Assembly (NCBI GenBank): GCA_045632285.1
Contig: JAZQWJ010000051.1
Coordinates: 7,955 to 71,954, forward strand
Length of the DNA stretch: 64,000 nt
Reading direction: 5' to 3'
DNA from: Eubacteriales bacterium
GTDB taxonomy: Bacteria; Bacillota; Clostridia; Oscillospirales; CAG-272
Below the pieces are notes generated by a model. That model was given only the letters and a program-made list of their open reading frames with translations. It was not told where the DNA came from and did no database searches. Of this stretch, positions 25,687 to 33,746 are shown one piece after another. The position numbers and the translations under genes were made by a program. Numbering within the stretch: position 1 is the stretch's first letter; each line of letters starts with the position of its first letter.

Positions 25687-26256
25687 TTATTTTTTCTCTA
25701 CAACGAAGAAGAAGGGGGATGCGGGGGAGTTGACGATGCGGATCAGGGTGCAGCAGATGGCGTGGCGGTCAAGGGTGGAGAAGTAATCCTGCACCATCTT
25801 GCCCTCGGCATCACCCTCGGCGTGGCCGGGATAGACGGCCACCAGCAGGATGCCGCCGTGGTCCAGCAGCTCCACAGCCGCCTCAATGGCGGGCATAGTG
25901 GTCTCGCGCATGGTGGTGATCTTTTTATCGCTGCCGGGGAGATAGCCAAGGTTGAACATACCCGCCTTGATGGGGCCCTCTACGTACTTTTTTACGTTGT
26001 GGTGCGAGTCCAGGATCAGGGTGTAATTCTGCTCGCAGCCCGCCTTTTCCAGATTAGCGGCGGTAGAGGACACGGCCTGCTCTTGTACGTCAAACGCATA
26101 TACGTGTCCGTCTTTTCCCACCGTTTTAGACAAAAACTCGGTGTCGTGTCCGTTGCCCATGGTAAAGTCAACGGCAGTGTCGCCCTCGCCCAGATGGTTT
26201 AAAATGAATTGCTTTTGCAGCTGCAAAAGGTCGATCATGCTACCGTATTTGCTCAT
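25687..26256 (-). CDS. mnmM: Class I SAM-dependent methyltransferase, YtqB/MnmM-like (tRNA mnm5s2U34 methyltransferase family)
   Basis: 189 aa. Collinear with B. subtilis YtqB as I remember it (DxTMGNGHDT, GHVYAFDxQE, FNLGYLPGxDK, VYxGHxEG). Its ATG overlaps the upstream gene's stop by 4 nt. Confidence 0.65.
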   Translation of the reverse strand: MSKYGSMIDLLQLQKQFILNHLGEGDTAVDFTMGNGHDTEFLSKTVGKDGHVYAFDVQEQAVSSTAANLEKAGCEQNYTLILDSHHNVKKYVEGPIKAGMFNLGYLPGSDKKITTMRETTMPAIEAAVELLDHGGILLVAVYPGHAEGDAEGKMVQDYFSTLDRHAICCTLIRIVNSPASPFFFVVEKK

Positions 26257-27221
26257 TTCTTCAGCAGCCTTTCAAAGTGGGGCAGCAGGTTATCTGCATA
26301 GAACTGGAAGCCGAAGGCATTGGGGTGCAGACGGCGGTCGGCGTATACGTCGGGGATGTGGGGGGTCAGCTCCATACCGTCTACCACGTCGATGTCAAAG
26401 TGGGCGGCGGCCTCGCGGATGATGGTGCGCATATCCTCAAAGCTGCCAACGGCGGTGATGCGGTTCATGTCGCCTCGCCACAGGGGCAGGATCTGCACGA
26501 TGGGAATGCTCGGGTACTTGTCGCGCAGGCGGGCCAAATGGCCGTTGCAGCAGCCCACAAGGCGGCCCCTTGTGGTGCCGGACCAGTCGTTGGTGCCGTA
26601 GGCCACGGATACAAGATCGGGTGCAAAGTCCAGCTGATCGTCAACGGCGCGGGGGTTAAAGCGTTCGCCGCCGATGCCCTGATTGACCACCTCGGCATCC
26701 AGCGCACGCGCCACCTGATGGGCATAGGTCATCGAGGCGTAGGTAGAGGTCGAACCGTGGGTGATGGAGTCACCGATAAAGAGAATGCGGTGCTTGGGTG
26801 CTGCGGCCTCCTTGAAGATGGAGCCCTCTTTCAGCGTTACGTCGCAGATCTGACCTGCGCTGTGATGGGGGAAGTAGATGGTTACGGTCTTCTCGCCTGC
26901 GGGGAGCTTGACCTCCATACGGCCGCGACCTGCGCCGCAGCCCGTGTGGGCGTACATCACGCCGTCGGCCCACACGTCAAAGCTGTGGTCGCCGCCTGCG
27001 GGGGTGGAGATCCAGGAAAAGCCGAGGCTCTTGGAATCGGTGACGAATTTACAAACGATGCCCGAGGTGTGGAACATAGCGCCGTGAAAGCGATCGCCTT
27101 CGGGATAAATATGCTCACGTACGTATTTGCCGTAGCGGTACAGCACAAGGAGGCCGTCGCGCTCGGTGATCTCGGCAGCGCCCCGGATGGTGGAGCGCAG
27201 CTGCTCGTTATTCAAAATCAT
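26253..27221 (-). CDS. SGNH/GDSL hydrolase with N-terminal beta-sandwich domain (CE2-like architecture)
   Basis: FIGDSITHG block I, GTNDW, and the DxxH region (ADRRLHPN). ATG at 27221 with AGGAG 8 nt upstream is preferred over the GTG at 27230. Confidence 0.8.
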   Translation of the reverse strand: MILNNEQLRSTIRGAAEITERDGLLVLYRYGKYVREHIYPEGDRFHGAMFHTSGIVCKFVTDSKSLGFSWISTPAGGDHSFDVWADGVMYAHTGCGAGRGRMEVKLPAGEKTVTIYFPHHSAGQICDVTLKEGSIFKEAAAPKHRILFIGDSITHGSTSTYASMTYAHQVARALDAEVVNQGIGGERFNPRAVDDQLDFAPDLVSVAYGTNDWSGTTRGRLVGCCNGHLARLRDKYPSIPIVQILPLWRGDMNRITAVGSFEDMRTIIREAAAHFDIDVVDGMELTPHIPDVYADRRLHPNAFGFQFYADNLLPHFERLLKK

Positions 27222-27235
27222 ATCGGTCACTCCTT

Positions 27236-28213
27236 TCAGTCAAGATGGGGCTTGATGGCCGCATACAGGGCACTTGCGTAGAACTTAAAGCCATAGTCGT
27301 TGGGGTGCAGATACTTGTCCGCACAGACCTCGGGTAGATGGGGGATCATCTTGGCGCCGTCCACCACAACGATGCCCTCCTGAGCAGAGGCGGCGTCGGC
27401 TACGATCTGCACGCCCTCTGTAAAGCTGCCAACCTTGGTGATGCGGTCGTCGTCGGCGCGCCAGATGGGGGTGATGGCAAAGATCTTGGCCTTGTGATAG
27501 GTCGTGCGGAGCTTTGCGTAAAACTCGTTGGCGCACTGCACCGTACGCTCACGCTCCTGACCGCTCCAGTCGTTGGTGCCGTAGGCCACGGTGATGATAT
27601 CGGGGGCGAAATCCATATCGGGGTCGATCAGCGCGGGGCGGAAGATCTCGCCACCGATGCCTTGATCCACCATCTCGGCATCCAACTTGTCAGCAAGGAG
27701 ATTGGCGTAGGTCTGAGAAGAATATTTGGCATCGTAGCCCTGGGTGATGGAGTCACCGAAGCAGAGCAGACGGCGACTTTTTTCAATGGGCTGCAGGGTA
27801 GCGCCGTCGGAGAGGGTGACGTTTGACAGGGTGGCCTTTGCAAGGCAGGGGAGGTACACGGCCACGCGATGCTCGCCCTCGGGGAGCTTGACCGTGACGG
27901 TAGAGGCCGCCTCGCGCAGTCCCTCGTGACCAAAGTGTTGCACCATAATGCCGTCTACGAATACGTCAAAAAAGTAAAAGCGGCGGCTGGAGGCAATGTT
28001 GATGTTGTAGTCAAATGAGAATTTTTCAGCGTCGGTCACAAACTCCAAACGCACGCCCGAGGTGGCGGGGACCTTAACACGGAAATCGTTGATGTCCTCA
28101 TAGAGCTTTGCCTGGTAGTCGGTAAAGCGGTGGAAGGTGAAGATGCCGTTCTCCTCGGTCACCGACAGGGCGCCGTGGGTGACGGAACGGATCTGTTCAA
28201 GCGTCAGTTTCAT
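27236..28213 (-). CDS. SGNH/GDSL hydrolase, paralog of the downstream gene
   Basis: CFGDSITQG, GTNDW, DKYLHPN. Same two-domain layout as 26253-27221, with less than half of positions identical by eye. AAAGGAG RBS before the ATG at 28213. Confidence 0.8.
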   Translation of the reverse strand: MKLTLEQIRSVTHGALSVTEENGIFTFHRFTDYQAKLYEDINDFRVKVPATSGVRLEFVTDAEKFSFDYNINIASSRRFYFFDVFVDGIMVQHFGHEGLREAASTVTVKLPEGEHRVAVYLPCLAKATLSNVTLSDGATLQPIEKSRRLLCFGDSITQGYDAKYSSQTYANLLADKLDAEMVDQGIGGEIFRPALIDPDMDFAPDIITVAYGTNDWSGQERERTVQCANEFYAKLRTTYHKAKIFAITPIWRADDDRITKVGSFTEGVQIVADAASAQEGIVVVDGAKMIPHLPEVCADKYLHPNDYGFKFYASALYAAIKPHLD

Positions 28214-28223
28214 AATATCTCCT

Positions 28224-28943
28224 TTATTTTTGGTCGTTGCGGTGCAGGTCTGCACGCAGGAATTTTATGGCTCGCTCTACGCTGTCCTTGGAGTTTTTCC
28301 AGGGCTCCTTGTCGTAGCGATAGTCAAATTTTTTGCAGAACCAGCTGACATCCTCGGAAAGGGTATCCAGATAGTCCTTTACAACTCTTTCGGTGAGCTT
28401 GCAAAACTCGGGCAGCTTCTTTTTGGAAAGGCGCGCAGCGGCCTTTTCTAAAAGCAGCCGATAGTGGGGGAGGCAGAAATAGGGCTGCTCTTGCATTTTT
28501 TTGATGAAATTTTCATCGGTGTCGTATAGCAGCACAACGGTTTCGGCCATGTGCTGAAAGTGGAAATCAATGCGGCCGCACACGTAGCAAGAGCCTTCCA
28601 GCGTACCAATGCGCTTGGCGGGCTTTTGGTCGGGCCGCCCTGTCAGCGAGCTGAGCAGACCCTTGGAGAGATCGCCCTTCAGCTCGTTTAAATGACTTTC
28701 CAGCGTCAGCGCCATACCAAGGCGGTTTTTGCGCACAAACATCATATCGTAATGGGTGCGGCAAAAGCCCAGCTTGTTGGTTTTGATGCGGACGTCAGGC
28801 TCCATCATAGAAGCGCCCAATATCAGCTCCAGCTCATCATTTTCCAGCTTATTGTAAAGTGCACACATGGGGCAGCCGCAGCTTTTATCGGCAGCCGACC
28901 GTTCAAAGGCCTCGTTTACGGGTATGGTATAGATCTGTTCCAT
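28224..28943 (-). CDS. Cysteine-rich protein of unknown function (possibly DUF6062-like)
   Basis: 239 aa. First gene of the minus-strand string. Cys clusters CGCPMC...FCRTH and CYVCG...FCLPH suggest two metal-binding knuckles. AAGGAGGG RBS. Confidence 0.6.
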   Translation of the reverse strand: MEQIYTIPVNEAFERSAADKSCGCPMCALYNKLENDELELILGASMMEPDVRIKTNKLGFCRTHYDMMFVRKNRLGMALTLESHLNELKGDLSKGLLSSLTGRPDQKPAKRIGTLEGSCYVCGRIDFHFQHMAETVVLLYDTDENFIKKMQEQPYFCLPHYRLLLEKAAARLSKKKLPEFCKLTERVVKDYLDTLSEDVSWFCKKFDYRYDKEPWKNSKDSVERAIKFLRADLHRNDQK

Positions 28944-29408: not shown

Positions 29409-30200
29409 ATGGGAAAATTTGACGGCATTTTGCTCTGCACCGATTTTGATATGACCTTGGCCGAAAAGGCCGTGATTTCGCCCGAAAACGCAGCAGCCAT
29501 CCGCTATTTTCAAGAGAACGGCGGCCGCTTTACCGTGATCAGCGGGCGCAACCCCTATTTTTTGACCGAGCACTTGGGAAAGGTGCGGGTCAACGCCCCT
29601 TTGGTGGGATATAACGGTGCTTTAATTTTGGACGAAAGTGCCGCAACGGTGCTGTATTCCGGGGGGAGACACGATCTGGATGCCCTTGATTTCGCAGAAA
29701 AATTTTGGAATAAGGACACCCGTATTTTCAGCATCGTTCCCCATGACGAGCGGCTGTTTTTGGGCGCTTGCAAAAGAGAGCCTCAGCCCGACTGCGTGCT
29801 GACGGTAGACGAGCTGCGCACAAAATGCAAGGGCTTTTTACACAACGTGATCTGCAGTTTTCAGCGTACGGAGGATGCCATTGCCGTGCGGGACGAGATG
29901 ATTGCCGCCGCGGGGGATAAGTTCGTGATCCTGCGTAGCTGGGAGCGGGGCGTGGAGATCATCAGTCCGTGGGATCAGAAGGGCGTTGCCGCCCGACGTG
30001 TGAAGGAGATGGTGGGCGCCAAGACCTTGGTCTGTGCGGGAGATTTTGAAAATGATATTTCAATGATCGAGGTTGCCGATATCGGCTACGCCGTGGCAAA
30101 CGCCGTGCCCGAGGTCAAGGCGGTGGCCGACCGCATGACGGTGGATTATCGCGAGCACGCGATGGTTGCCATTATCCAAGAATTAGAAGAAAATTTGTAA
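29409..30200 (+). CDS. HAD-IIB (Cof-type) phosphatase
   Basis: LLCTDFDMTL (DxD motif I), GDFENDISM (motif IV) and a cap-domain layout. Confidence 0.8.
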   Translation: MGKFDGILLCTDFDMTLAEKAVISPENAAAIRYFQENGGRFTVISGRNPYFLTEHLGKVRVNAPLVGYNGALILDESAATVLYSGGRHDLDALDFAEKFWNKDTRIFSIVPHDERLFLGACKREPQPDCVLTVDELRTKCKGFLHNVICSFQRTEDAIAVRDEMIAAAGDKFVILRSWERGVEIISPWDQKGVAARRVKEMVGAKTLVCAGDFENDISMIEVADIGYAVANAVPEVKAVADRMTVDYREHAMVAIIQELEENL

Positions 30201-30208
30201 CATGTCGC

Positions 30209-30256
30209 AAAAACAGGCCTGCGTGTCACGAAAATCGTGACACGCAGGCCTGTTTT
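30209..30256. terminator. Bidirectional terminator
   Basis: 18-bp perfect stem ACAGGCCTGCGTGTCACG / CGTGACACGCAGGCCTGT with flanking A5 and T6. Confidence 0.9.
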
Positions 30257-31003
30257 TTATCTGCGGCCGCGGCTGCCGCCGGAAAAGCCGCCACCGCCCG
30301 AACTGCTGCCGCCCGAGCTGTTGCTTTGTACCCGCACGCGGGTGACGTAGCTGCCCACAAAGAGATCCCGATGCTCGGTCAGGTTCAGCGTGGCATAGCG
30401 ATCAAGCGGATAGCTGACACCGTGCCGCTTTTTGCGGTAGAACAAAAAGACACACAGCACCGTGATGCCGCCGATCAGCACGCCGCCGATCACGCCTGCG
30501 ATCAGGGCGGGCCAGGGAAATGCGTTTTGCCGCGCGATCTCCTTTGCGATCACCTGTTGACAAAGGCCGAAAAAGCTTTCACAGCCCTCGTAAAGATCGC
30601 CGCGCTTGATGTTGCGGTAAACGCTGTCGGCATCCAAAATGTCATCCACGTCCCTATCGGAAAACAGGTCGTCGGCACCGTTAAAGGTGAACATCTCATA
30701 ATAGTAGGTGGTGCCCGTACTGTCGATGACCAGTACAACGGCGCTTTTTTCACCAATGGCACAAACAGAATGCACGCGAGAGGCGCTCATTTGCACAGTG
30801 GCGGTGACCAGATAAAAGGAGACACCGTGGGTGTCTTCACCCCGCATCGATCCTAACCGTATCTCCTCCTCAGCGGTGAAAAATCCCGCACTGTCGTAGA
30901 CCGTAACGTTGTAGGGGAGTACGACCTTTGCTTGTGCCGCAGTGGGGGGAAACAGGGTAAGCAAAAGAAGTAGAATGGGGAACAAAACAATGGTTTTTTT
31001 CAT
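30257..31003 (-). CDS. TPM-domain membrane protein (YdjH/UPF0603-like)
   Basis: Signal peptide MKKTIVLFPILLLLLTLF...AQA, a TPM-like ectodomain, one TM helix, and a glycine/serine-rich tail SSGGSSSGGGGFSGGSRGRR typical of TPM proteins. Confidence 0.7.
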   Translation of the reverse strand: MKKTIVLFPILLLLLTLFPPTAAQAKVVLPYNVTVYDSAGFFTAEEEIRLGSMRGEDTHGVSFYLVTATVQMSASRVHSVCAIGEKSAVVLVIDSTGTTYYYEMFTFNGADDLFSDRDVDDILDADSVYRNIKRGDLYEGCESFFGLCQQVIAKEIARQNAFPWPALIAGVIGGVLIGGITVLCVFLFYRKKRHGVSYPLDRYATLNLTEHRDLFVGSYVTRVRVQSNSSGGSSSGGGGFSGGSRGRR

Positions 31004-31015
31004 ACCGTTACCCCC

Positions 31016-32116
31016 TTAAATCAGCAAAGCGGTCAGCAAGCCAATGGCGGCACCCGACAGGGCCGCAACGGCAGAGCCGAGGATGGCCAGCTTGCCCGCG
31101 CTAACGGGCACGCGCCCATAGACCTTGCCGGTATAGCCGTTCATGGCAAAGGTATAGGTCTTGCCGCCGCGGTTGTAATTCAGCAGCCAGATGGGCATCA
31201 GCGTGTAATCCCAGTGGATGCGACCGGTCAGCAGTCGGGGCGGATTGGGGATCACGGTGGTGTATCCGCCAATGGTGTTGCGCAGCAGTGTTTCGCTGTA
31301 GCTTTGCATACGGCGGCGGACCGCCTCACGCACGGCCTCCTTATCGATGTTGCGTTTTTTGGCAAGAAAGCCCGATAGATAGGCCATAGAAAAATCCTGC
31401 AGAGAGTCGGAGGGGTAGGGCAGAATGCCGTCCAGCATATCCCGATCCTCCTCGGTGATGGCGGGGGTGACGATATCCTCAAAGTGAATATCTCCGCTGC
31501 GATAAATATGAAATTTCGAGGTCTCGGTATAGCGATAGTCTCCCACGCGCCAAGAGCGGACGCGGGTGGCTCTGGCGCTCATTGATGCGGTGGTATCGGC
31601 ATCGGTCACCCAAAAGGGATAATAAATGCCGGTGATACGCTCCAATTGGGCGGTGCTTGTAAAGTCGCGGGGCAAAAACCACTTTTTCTTGGCAAATTTC
31701 AAAAATTCAGCCGAGGCACTCTCGTGGTCAAAGCGGAAGGGGATCACCTTATGGGGGCGCATCTGCCCCGCCAGTCGTCCGCCCAAAATGATGGGGTTGT
31801 GGCAATAGGGGCAGTGGGTCGCGGCGGTGTTTTCGTCACAGGTGACGTCGGCACCGCAAGAGGCGCAATGGTATTCGGTCATTTGCGCGCAATAGTCCTC
31901 GTCGGGGATCTCCGCAGCCTCTGCGGCGGCCTCTGCGGCGGCAGCGGCCGCTTCCTCGGCCAAGCGGGCACTTTCGGTAGCCTTAAGCTCGGCATTGGTA
32001 AACTCAGAAAGACAAAATTCACAGCAAAATTTCTGCTTTTGCGGGTCAAAGGAAAGGCCTGCAGAGCAGTTGGGGCATTGATACGTAACAGCGGCTGTTG
32101 TGTTCATAGAGGTCAA
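31016..32116 (-). CDS. Double zinc-ribbon membrane-anchored protein (YdjG-like)
   Basis: CPNC...CEFC and CASC...CPYC ribbons separated by an alanine/glutamate-rich linker. C-terminal TM helix. The TTG start at 32116 overlaps the upstream stop; an alternative ATG is at 32107. Confidence 0.65.
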   Translation of the reverse strand: MTSMNTTAAVTYQCPNCSAGLSFDPQKQKFCCEFCLSEFTNAELKATESARLAEEAAAAAAEAAAEAAEIPDEDYCAQMTEYHCASCGADVTCDENTAATHCPYCHNPIILGGRLAGQMRPHKVIPFRFDHESASAEFLKFAKKKWFLPRDFTSTAQLERITGIYYPFWVTDADTTASMSARATRVRSWRVGDYRYTETSKFHIYRSGDIHFEDIVTPAITEEDRDMLDGILPYPSDSLQDFSMAYLSGFLAKKRNIDKEAVREAVRRRMQSYSETLLRNTIGGYTTVIPNPPRLLTGRIHWDYTLMPIWLLNYNRGGKTYTFAMNGYTGKVYGRVPVSAGKLAILGSAVAALSGAAIGLLTALLI

Positions 32117-33378
32117 TTTCTCTTACGGCCGCATTCGTTGCAGAACTTACCGGTGTTTTTTGCGCCGCACTCCGGGCAGAACCAGCCGTCACTTTCGGGG
32201 CGCTTGGTGCCGCATTCCTGGCAGAACTTGCCGGTGCTTTGCTTACCGCAGCCGGGGCAGATCCAAGCGCCGACGGGCTCCGGCTTTTTGTTGCCGCACT
32301 CCTGACAGAATTTTCCGGTATTTTGGGCGCCGCAGGCGCAGATCCATCCGTCTGTGGGCTTTGCGGCCTGCTGCTGTTGCTGTTGCATTTGCGCACGGTT
32401 GGTCTCGGAAAATGCGCCAAAGCCACCCATTGCGTTCATACCCATGCCCATGCCAACAAAGGTGTTGGCGCCGCCGTTCGGGTTGCTGCCCGCAGCCTCA
32501 AAGCCGCGCGCCATAGCACCCTGTACATAGCCCTCGCGTACGGTGGCATCGCCCAACATAGCGCCCTGATTGCGCATATTGATCAGCTTTTTGGATTCCT
32601 CGTCATAAGAAACGCTGGCTATACCAACCGACAGGATCTCAAAGCCGCGAAGCGACTTAAAGCCCTCGTCAAGCTCGGTGGCCATATACTGCGACAGCTC
32701 GCGGGATCTGCTGGGAACGTGGGAAATTCTGATACCGTCTGCCGACATTTTATTGATGGCGGCCTGAAACGCCTCTAAAAATTCCGCGAGATATTGCTCG
32801 TTGATCGCGTTGATCTCAACGCGATCGGCGTCGCGGGGAATGGCCTCGGCATAGAATTTCAGCGGGTCGGTGATCTTGATGGAATAGGTGCCGAAGGCGC
32901 GCAAGAAAAGCTCTGCATTGTAGAAGTTGTCAAAGTAATTGACGGGGGTACGGGTGCCGAATTTGATGCCCTTGATCTCTTGCAGGTTGATAAAGAACGC
33001 CTTTTGAGAGGTGGAGGGTACGCCGCCGTATTTGATGCGGCCAAAGGTCTCTTTCAGCGAGGCACCAAACTGCCCCGCAAACAGCGAGGGCATAGCAGAG
33101 TTATCCACCTTATAGTAGCCGGGCTCGGCGGTAAAGTCCACCACCTTGCCGCCGTCCACAAGCAGCATAAACTGGTTGTCGTAAACGTGGATGATCGAGC
33201 CGTTGGAGATGGTGTCGGCCGTGCCCTTTTTGTTGTTGTTGCGCTTGTCGCCCGGGCGCACCTTTACACCCTTTGTAAAGACGACGCCCTCGCCCATACG
33301 GTCGGCCTCAAGCACCTCCTGCCAAGAGTCGGCAAGACCGCCGCCCATGCTTTGAAATACAGCTTTGATGATGCCCAT
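32113..33378 (-). CDS. SPFH/band-7 domain protein (YdjI / COG4260 virion-core-like) with three C-terminal zinc ribbons
   Basis: Start MGIIKAVFQSMGGGLADSWQE with an AAGGAG RBS. Q-rich linker (QMQQQQQQ), then three W-x-C-x2-CG-x4-GKFC-x-ECG modules. Confidence 0.75.
   Translation of the reverse strand: MGIIKAVFQSMGGGLADSWQEVLEADRMGEGVVFTKGVKVRPGDKRNNNKKGTADTISNGSIIHVYDNQFMLLVDGGKVVDFTAEPGYYKVDNSAMPSLFAGQFGASLKETFGRIKYGGVPSTSQKAFFINLQEIKGIKFGTRTPVNYFDNFYNAELFLRAFGTYSIKITDPLKFYAEAIPRDADRVEINAINEQYLAEFLEAFQAAINKMSADGIRISHVPSRSRELSQYMATELDEGFKSLRGFEILSVGIASVSYDEESKKLINMRNQGAMLGDATVREGYVQGAMARGFEAAGSNPNGGANTFVGMGMGMNAMGGFGAFSETNRAQMQQQQQQAAKPTDGWICACGAQNTGKFCQECGNKKPEPVGAWICPGCGKQSTGKFCQECGTKRPESDGWFCPECGAKNTGKFCNECGRKRN
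32116..32352 (-). repeat. Three tandem ~80-90-bp coding repeats (zinc-ribbon modules)
   Basis: CCGCATTCGTTGCAGAACTTACCGGTG..., CCGCATTCCTGGCAGAACTTGCCGGTG... and CCGCACTCCTGACAGAATTTTCCGGTA... This repeat accounts for the cluster of overlapping spurious ORFs in the track here. Confidence 0.85.
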
Positions 33379-33442: not shown

Positions 33443-33746
33443 TTAAAAAAGACTGCCTGTGCCCCAAGGCACAAGCAGTCACTTTGTCATGATGCCCCTT
33501 AGGGGCGCACCGAGGTGCGATTATGCAAACCCGCCGAGCCGTGTAACCGGTACCGAGAACCCTGTTTTAAACAAGGCGGTGCCCTGCCGCTCGCTTTACT
33601 GCTCCCAGCATCCTTGACCCCTGTCCGAGACAAGTCGATCGTAACAGGGAAGGGAGGTCTGCAAACCACGCGCGGACTCTATCCGGGCTCCAATTTCTGC
33701 GTGTAGGCTCCACTAACTCGATTATCACGCACTAAGCAGGCGTTTT
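33443..33746 (-). ncRNA. Unclassified structured non-coding region ending in a strong intrinsic terminator (candidate sRNA, long 3' UTR or cis-regulatory leader)
   Basis: About 300 nt with no plausible ORF between the DUF1292 stop (33747) and the SPFH operon. Minus-strand hairpins include CCCTGT...ACAGGG nested in CTCCC...GGGAG, GCAC-CTCG-GTGC, GCCCC-TAA-GGGGC and the palindrome CGGTACCG. It ends with a 13-bp imperfect stem GACTGCTTGTGCC / GGCACAGGCAGTC (one mismatch), then T6 (33443-33480). Confidence 0.45.

Follow-up and report, generated by a model that had tools for sequence, protein, structure and literature searches.

Organization of the operon

The sequence analyzed here (the window) is a 64-kb stretch of contig JAZQWJ010000051.1 from a Eubacteriales bacterium, and the element under study is an operon of three co-oriented minus-strand open reading frames (ORFs), named A, B and C in the order of reading, which spanned window positions 30257-33378. 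The genes encode a predicted SPFH protein, a predicted membrane protein with two zinc ribbons and a predicted TPM-domain membrane protein. Their positions and orientation agreed with the original prediction, which had been made from the letters and translated ORFs of this DNA. The genes and the hairpins that bound them were as follows.

32113-33378, minus strand: gene A, 421 aa, SamI/YdjI-like, predicted soluble SPFH protein
31016-32107, minus strand: gene B, 363 aa from the ATG, SamG/YdjG-like, predicted tail-anchored protein
30257-31003, minus strand: gene C, 248 aa, SamH/YdjH-like, predicted bitopic membrane protein
30211-30255, no strand assigned: intrinsic terminator hairpin with a 20-bp stem and T/A runs on both sides
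33451-33480, minus strand: terminator hairpin, 72 nt upstream of the start codon of gene A

An AAAGGAG ribosome-binding site was located ahead of the gene A ATG at 33378. The junction of A and B had been described as a stop/start overlap. An overlap of this kind would follow from an in-frame TTG at 32116, an alternative start of gene B giving 366 aa and running into the TGA stop of A. However, the ATG at 32107 was chosen by the gene callers on a near-identical metagenome contig, and the N-termini of gene B homologues matched the length of the protein started there, so the junction is probably a 5-nt gap. The predicted 12-nt spacing between B and C was confirmed, and it contained AAGGGGG, the ribosome-binding site of gene C. 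With either form of the first junction, the three genes are contiguous, closely spaced and flanked by terminators, as in a single operon. The hairpin at 30211-30255 terminates the operon as well as the convergent gene downstream, while that at 33451-33480 lies at the end of a 6S-RNA-like gene and sets the operon apart from transcription coming from upstream. Both boundaries lie about 30 kb from the window edges.

Domain architecture of the three proteins

Protein A matched Pfam Band_7_1 (PF13421) with 62.9 bits against a cutoff of 24. The domain covered residues ~55-270 and was followed by a low-complexity linker rich in Gly, Met and Gln (~295-343) and by three zinc ribbons, in which all 12 cysteines of the protein were contained (residues 347-416), with the motif W-x-C-x(1,2)-C-G...G-K-F-C-x-E-C-G. 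No transmembrane (TM) helix or hydrophobic segment was detected by hydropathy, and protein A is predicted to be soluble without a membrane anchor of its own. In the AlphaFold2 model the core was moderately confident (predicted local distance difference test, pLDDT, 70-85) and the ends were disordered. When searched with Foldseek, this model matched the structures of stomatin, HflK/C, prohibitin, erlin and flotillin (E 8e-8 to 1e-3, probability 1.0), with TM-scores up to 0.69 that refer to isolated SPFH domains. The model thus presents the alpha+beta core fold of the SPFH/Band-7 proteins, and this predicted fold is what protein A has in common with the known SPFH scaffolds. Compared to those scaffolds, protein A lacks a membrane anchor, ends in zinc ribbons instead of a long coiled-coil lid, and falls into the Band_7_1 branch, for which sequence searches gave no relative with a solved structure. 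More generally, no solved-structure relative of A, B or C was detectable by sequence.

The ribbons were counted in 66 homologues of protein A, the window protein included: three were present in 46, two in 19 and one in a single protein. Two or three predicted ribbons are accordingly the norm in the clade of A. The original prediction had stated that the SPFH protein gained three extra ribbons; since YdjI of Bacillus subtilis already has one, the excess of A is two, and three is the commonest number among its homologues.

Protein B was composed of a first ribbon (C11-C32), a helix (38-64), a second ribbon (C81-C102), two units made of a helix and a long beta-hairpin (~128-331) and a TM helix (339-363). 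Its zinc-ribbon matches were all below threshold; the eight cysteines, arranged in two CxxC...CxxC pairs, were invariant across 92 diverse homologues. The AlphaFold2 model (pLDDT 83, predicted TM-score 0.71) showed the same order of elements, with two units, each of short helices followed by very long beta-hairpins, placed between the second ribbon and the terminal helix. Because the only hydrophobic segment is the C-terminal helix, which reaches the last residue, protein B is predicted to be tail-anchored, with most of the protein in the cytoplasm. Its central ~200 residues, for which an NTF2-like/YpeB-related domain has been proposed in the case of YdjG by Ravi et al. 2024 (PMC11237479), were not covered by any Pfam model. 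The family was represented by 6181 clusters at 50% identity (E<=1e-3), which marks the SamG-like proteins, as defined by this search, as a large family without a domain model. Four members, P0317, P0345, P0370 and P0387 (542-649 aa), were natural fusions of a B-family protein with a C-terminal TPM domain.

Two further observations on this family were set apart. Member P0342 carries the C-terminal domains of EF-G/BipA and probably represents a chimera from gene calling or assembly. The 'phage' matches of B in tblastn, on short unannotated virome or lysate contigs of Enterococcus and Listeria, were discarded as probable host DNA.

Protein C matched Pfam TPM_phosphatase (PF04536) with 26.5 bits, above the cutoff of 22.1. 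The TPM domain (35-150), expected to be extracytoplasmic, came after a signal peptide (1-25, with AQA at its end), and a TM helix (161-190) was followed by a tail of 58 residues with a Gly/Ser run at its end. Since hydropathy indicated a signal peptide and one TM helix, protein C is predicted to be bitopic, with the TPM domain outside the cell, a single TM anchor and a short cytoplasmic tail. The domain assignments of the original prediction, SPFH for A, a double zinc ribbon with a TM helix for B and TPM for C, were therefore upheld, by Pfam for A and C and by the invariant cysteines and hydropathy for B.

Comparison with the SamGHI proteins of B. subtilis

The B. subtilis locus of CP062497.1 (L092), with pspA (PF04012), ydjG, ydjH (PF04536) and ydjI (PF13421) in that order, was used as the reference. 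The public proteins P0121 and P0001 differ by a few residues from those of the window, and wherever this difference was relevant, the sequences of the window itself were taken. By BLASTP, protein B was 32% identical to YdjG over 356 aa (E=2e-69), protein A 21% identical to YdjI over 335 aa (E=3e-9), with the linker and ribbon included in the alignment, and protein C 22% identical to YdjH over 262 aa (E=1e-6), from the signal peptide through the Gly/Ser tail. All three alignments were collinear end to end. In addition, the hidden Markov models (HMMs) of the window families scored YdjI at 7e-63, YdjG at 1.5e-119 and YdjH at 1.4e-14, and the homology of the three genes to ydjI, ydjG and ydjH that had been proposed for this locus was well supported.

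The architectures of A, B and C also matched those given for YdjI, YdjG and YdjH by Ravi et al. (PMC11237479). Protein A has the form of SamI/YdjI, a predicted soluble Band_7_1 protein with a low-complexity linker and C-terminal ribbons; protein B that of SamG/YdjG, with two N-terminal ribbons, an alpha+beta domain in the model and a C-terminal TM helix; and protein C that of SamH/YdjH, with a signal peptide, a TPM domain, a TM helix and a Gly/Ser tail. The window locus is thus a SamGHI/YdjGHI-type module, a kind already known, and it differs from the B. subtilis operon in the absence of pspA, the gene order and the number of ribbons.

Compared to pspA-samGHI of B. subtilis, the same three protein types with the same full-length architectures were contiguous on one strand, but no pspA lay in cis in the 30 kb to either side, and the order was I-G-H instead of G-H-I, as had been noted before. 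The pspA-G-H-I layout with pspA directly upstream was therefore not present here, where the neighbors were a 6S-like RNA and a DUF1292 gene. Protein A was ~100 aa longer than YdjI and had three ribbons against one, and the identities were low for A and C.

Several properties of the B. subtilis system have been reported. The membrane foci of YdjI depend on YdjG and YdjH, YdjG-YdjH and YdjH-YdjI interactions were obtained by two-hybrid, a terminator lies between pspA and ydjG, and the operon is sigma-W dependent and induced by envelope stress (PMC8581546). According to a 2026 preprint on PspA-independent roles of SamGHI, SamGH acts as a sensor and SamI as a brake, and the developmental phenotype does not require PspA (10.64898/2026.02.06.704340). 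A conceptual parallel with PspA-PspBC of Escherichia coli and LiaIH of B. subtilis, in which a membrane sensor pair stands under a peripheral regulator, has been proposed for SamGHI in the literature; no protein of the window operon is homologous to PspA, PspB or PspC, and the parallel is one of analogy (10.64898/2026.02.06.704340).

Absence of PspA and gene order among relatives

A PspA HMM was built from four annotated proteins of E. coli, Paenibacillus, Clostridium sporogenes and Pseudarthrobacter (L006-L009). Nothing was found with it in the six-frame ORFs of the 64-kb window (best E about 2), while PspA of B. subtilis, which was not used in building the model, was scored at E=7e-41. PspA was therefore judged to be absent from the window and the operon, in agreement with the original prediction.

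A survey of gene neighborhoods was carried out with one genome per species. A scan with a 23-sequence alignment returned 80 loci, from Oscillospiraceae, Lachnospiraceae, Ruminococcus, Enterococcus, Bacillus sp. REN16, Robertmurraya, Alkaliphilus, Tissierellia and others, in which the A, B, C and PspA genes were mapped with HMMs. The arrangements were distributed as follows.

A-B-C on one strand: 61/80 loci
B-C only: 11/80 loci
A-B only: 3/80 loci
B-C-A: 1/80 loci
B alone: 2/80 loci
Contig too short for a call: 2/80 loci

PspA was found within 10 kb in none of the 80 loci, so that a PspA/IM30 (PF04012) protein of the Psp system was missing both from the window and from the 10 kb on each side of its relatives. 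Because the A-B-C order recurs in 61 of the 80 species-level genomes, the linkage of the three genes is more than chance. The genomes with this order spanned Oscillospiraceae, Lachnospiraceae, Ruminococcus, Enterococcus, Bacillaceae, Alkaliphilus and Tissierellia. The same order was annotated on a replicon of Enterococcus gallinarum, as SPFH, hypothetical protein and TPM. The order pspA-G-H-I occurred in B. subtilis, in Lederbergia lenta and in one metagenome-assembled genome (MAG) with a B. subtilis-like SamI. In a rough neighbor-joining tree, unbootstrapped and rooted on the proteobacterial pair, the pspA-linked G proteins formed a single clade nested among PspA-free Firmicute forms.

Beyond the Firmicutes, SPFH-B pairs without TPM or PspA were carried on replicons of Vibrio (L003), Tsukamurella (L004) and Comamonas (L005), and their SPFH protein ended in a module other than a ribbon. 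In Vibrio and Tsukamurella this C-terminus was proline-rich with a small conserved domain, and in Comamonas it was annotated as helix-turn-helix. The Vibrio pair adjoins a TIR-domain gene.

Based on these counts, the PspA-free order of SPFH, zinc-ribbon and TPM genes is the common form of the module in the Firmicutes, and the window locus is an ordinary member, whereas the pspA-G-H-I layout looks like a specialty of the Bacillaceae. The original prediction had regarded this locus as derived from the Bacillus operon, permuted and without PspA; with I-G-H in 61/80 loci and PspA in 0/80, the survey gave the opposite polarity. An ancestral, autonomous envelope module, represented by the PspA-free triad and by the SPFH-SamG pair beyond the Firmicutes, to which PspA was recruited only in a Bacillaceae lineage, is a plausible though tentative reading, held with slightly less than even confidence.

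Individual loci of the survey showed other features. At L082 (3164-6311) the order was B-C-A, as in G-H-I of B. subtilis, without PspA; its B protein was placed near the pspA-linked Bacillaceae clade in the rough tree, and the arrangement may be an intermediate one. In a Ruminococcus MAG without an SPFH gene (L074, 3002-5425), three ORFs directly precede the B-C pair, which by eye were an ECF-sigma-like protein, an anti-sigma-like protein with a zinc finger and multiple TM helices, and a protein containing SSSG[DE]I repeats; this context could tie B-C to envelope-stress regulation. At L044 (1241-3272) the B gene occurs with neither A nor C and has two divergent ORFs next to it, one of which has a long Asn-rich low-complexity region and a C-terminus that is TerD-like by eye. 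Matches to PspA on plasmids of Paenibacillus and Bacillus were rejected as ydjGHI loci, since their operons were PspA-DUF350-DUF4178-DUF4247.

A proposed model and its alternatives

On balance, the triad is somewhat more probably than otherwise a compact, self-contained operon for a membrane complex of the SamI-SamG-SamH type, in which a cis-encoded PspA is not needed. As transferred from their B. subtilis homologues, B and C would form a sensor or anchor embedded in the membrane and recruit the soluble protein A to the inner membrane face. There, A may oligomerize as an SPFH-type ring or cage that serves as a scaffold or a brake, and such an assembly would organize or restrain B-C signaling and the local membrane state in envelope stress. 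The predicted topology fits this division of labor, with C as the outside sensor, B as the cytoplasmic adaptor and A as the soluble scaffold. Since PspA-free triads are the rule among relatives, the triad is taken as the autonomous core, and PspA would be an accessory effector added in the Bacillaceae. The B-C fusions and the SPFH-B pairs outside the Firmicutes likewise point to a self-contained module, and the fusions give indirect support for cooperation of B and C.

Several results weigh against this proposal. B-C occurred without an adjacent A in 11 of the 80 relatives, so A is not strictly obligatory. No significant solved-structure neighbor of the central region of B was obtained with Foldseek, and no promoter, including one of the sigma-W type, or stress-responsive regulator was identified for the window operon. 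The statements on interaction and function are all transferred from proteins that are 21-32% identical. The PspA search covered 64 kb, and a PspA or LiaH protein may be encoded elsewhere in the genome.

This last point bears on an obligate partnership of the triad with a PspA encoded in trans, which was considered rather unlikely. The homology of A, B and C to the B. subtilis proteins speaks for it, as YdjI is needed there for PspA membrane foci and both YdjH and YdjI interact with PspA (PMC8581546), and Ravi et al. proposed that PSP partner genes without a cis pspA may recruit PspA from elsewhere (PMC11237479). However, the lack of PspA near every one of the related loci indicated no selection for linkage, and the pspA-linked forms were confined to one narrow clade of the rough tree. 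Just 21% identity connects A with YdjI, from which it also differs in the number of C-terminal ribbons, and even in B. subtilis SamGHI has PspA-independent phenotypes (10.64898/2026.02.06.704340). The autonomous module was thus favored over the partnership in trans.

Two other explanations depart from stress signaling by B and C. The TPM domain of C, which passed the Pfam threshold and for which a location outside the membrane is predicted, could serve membrane or cell-wall complexes as a phosphatase or chaperone, with A and B positioning C as scaffolds in the cytoplasm, so that the module would mainly be an extracytoplasmic assembly or repair factor without any role in stress signaling. TPM proteins have been tied to phosphatase/ATPase activity, to the repair of photosystem II and to the assembly of complexes (works cited in PMC11237479), and ydjG and ydjH mutants misplace peptidoglycan synthesis under alkaline shock (PMC8581546). 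This explanation is improbable, since the SPFH-B pairs of Proteobacteria and Actinobacteria lack a TPM gene, which argues that TPM is not a universal core, and the genetics of B. subtilis fits a sensor and brake logic (10.64898/2026.02.06.704340). Finally, an anti-phage or abortive-infection system, in which B or B-C is a membrane-damaging effector restrained by the SPFH protein, seems very improbable. None of A, B and C was matched by the PADLOC families, no meaningful PHROG match was obtained, and the operon is surrounded, in the window as in Enterococcus, by genes for housekeeping and sugar metabolism instead of defense islands. The locus is also syntenic and present in most relatives, unlike mobile defense genes. 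What could be set against this are the TIR-domain gene near the Vibrio SPFH-B pair, the harmful SamGH activity unleashed by loss of SamI in B. subtilis (10.64898/2026.02.06.704340) and the very long beta-hairpins in the model of B, for which the Foldseek matches to pore-forming toxins were weak and non-significant (E>0.1, TM<0.15).

The window locus is a typical member of a widespread arrangement, and the Bacillus operon is the special case. The same three proteins, routinely annotated as SPFH, TFIIB-type zinc-ribbon and TPM proteins, were found in fixed order and with no PspA nearby in gut Clostridia, enterococci and others, and no description of a PspA-free triad was found in literature searches. 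The fixed PspA-free order and the natural fusions of two of the proteins suggested that complexes of the SamGHI type form a membrane module that is widespread and stands by itself. This shifts the questions for testing to the signal sensed by B-C and the target scaffolded by the SPFH protein, and to the organisms in which this is asked, and it also flags the SamG-like family as large and unannotated.

Flanking genes and other observations

Outside the operon, two neighboring features were recorded.

29409-30200, plus strand: HAD-family hydrolase gene, convergent with the operon
33524-33745, minus strand: 6S (SsrS) RNA candidate, Rfam RF00013, sub-threshold

Upstream of gene A, a spacer of 368 nt was followed by a DUF1292 gene. 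The match to 6S RNA in this spacer was full-length and reached 36.7 bits against the gathering score of 46.4. Syntenic copies in two related genomes scored 57.7 bits, above threshold (L011, 8426-8643), and 37.6 bits (L010, 8374-8594); the predicted fold of the window candidate was not more stable than shuffled sequence (z = -0.14). A 6S (SsrS) RNA gene between the DUF1292 gene and gene A is probable. A riboswitch or leader of the operon was rejected as an explanation of the spacer, because the 368 nt are better accounted for by a 6S RNA gene that has a terminator of its own. The DUF1292 gene was rejected as a functional partner, because it adjoins the operon only in the two nearest genomes and thus reflects local synteny. 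On a plasmid of C. sporogenes (L008, 5001-7288), a Bax-inhibitor-1/YccA gene and then a DUF1292 gene come after a PspA/IM30 gene.

Elsewhere in the window, two adjacent minus-strand ORFs at 26253-27230 and 27236-28255 were of similar length and visibly related. Both were of the SGNH/GDSL-hydrolase type with GDSIT...GTNDW motifs, and they look like a tandem duplication.

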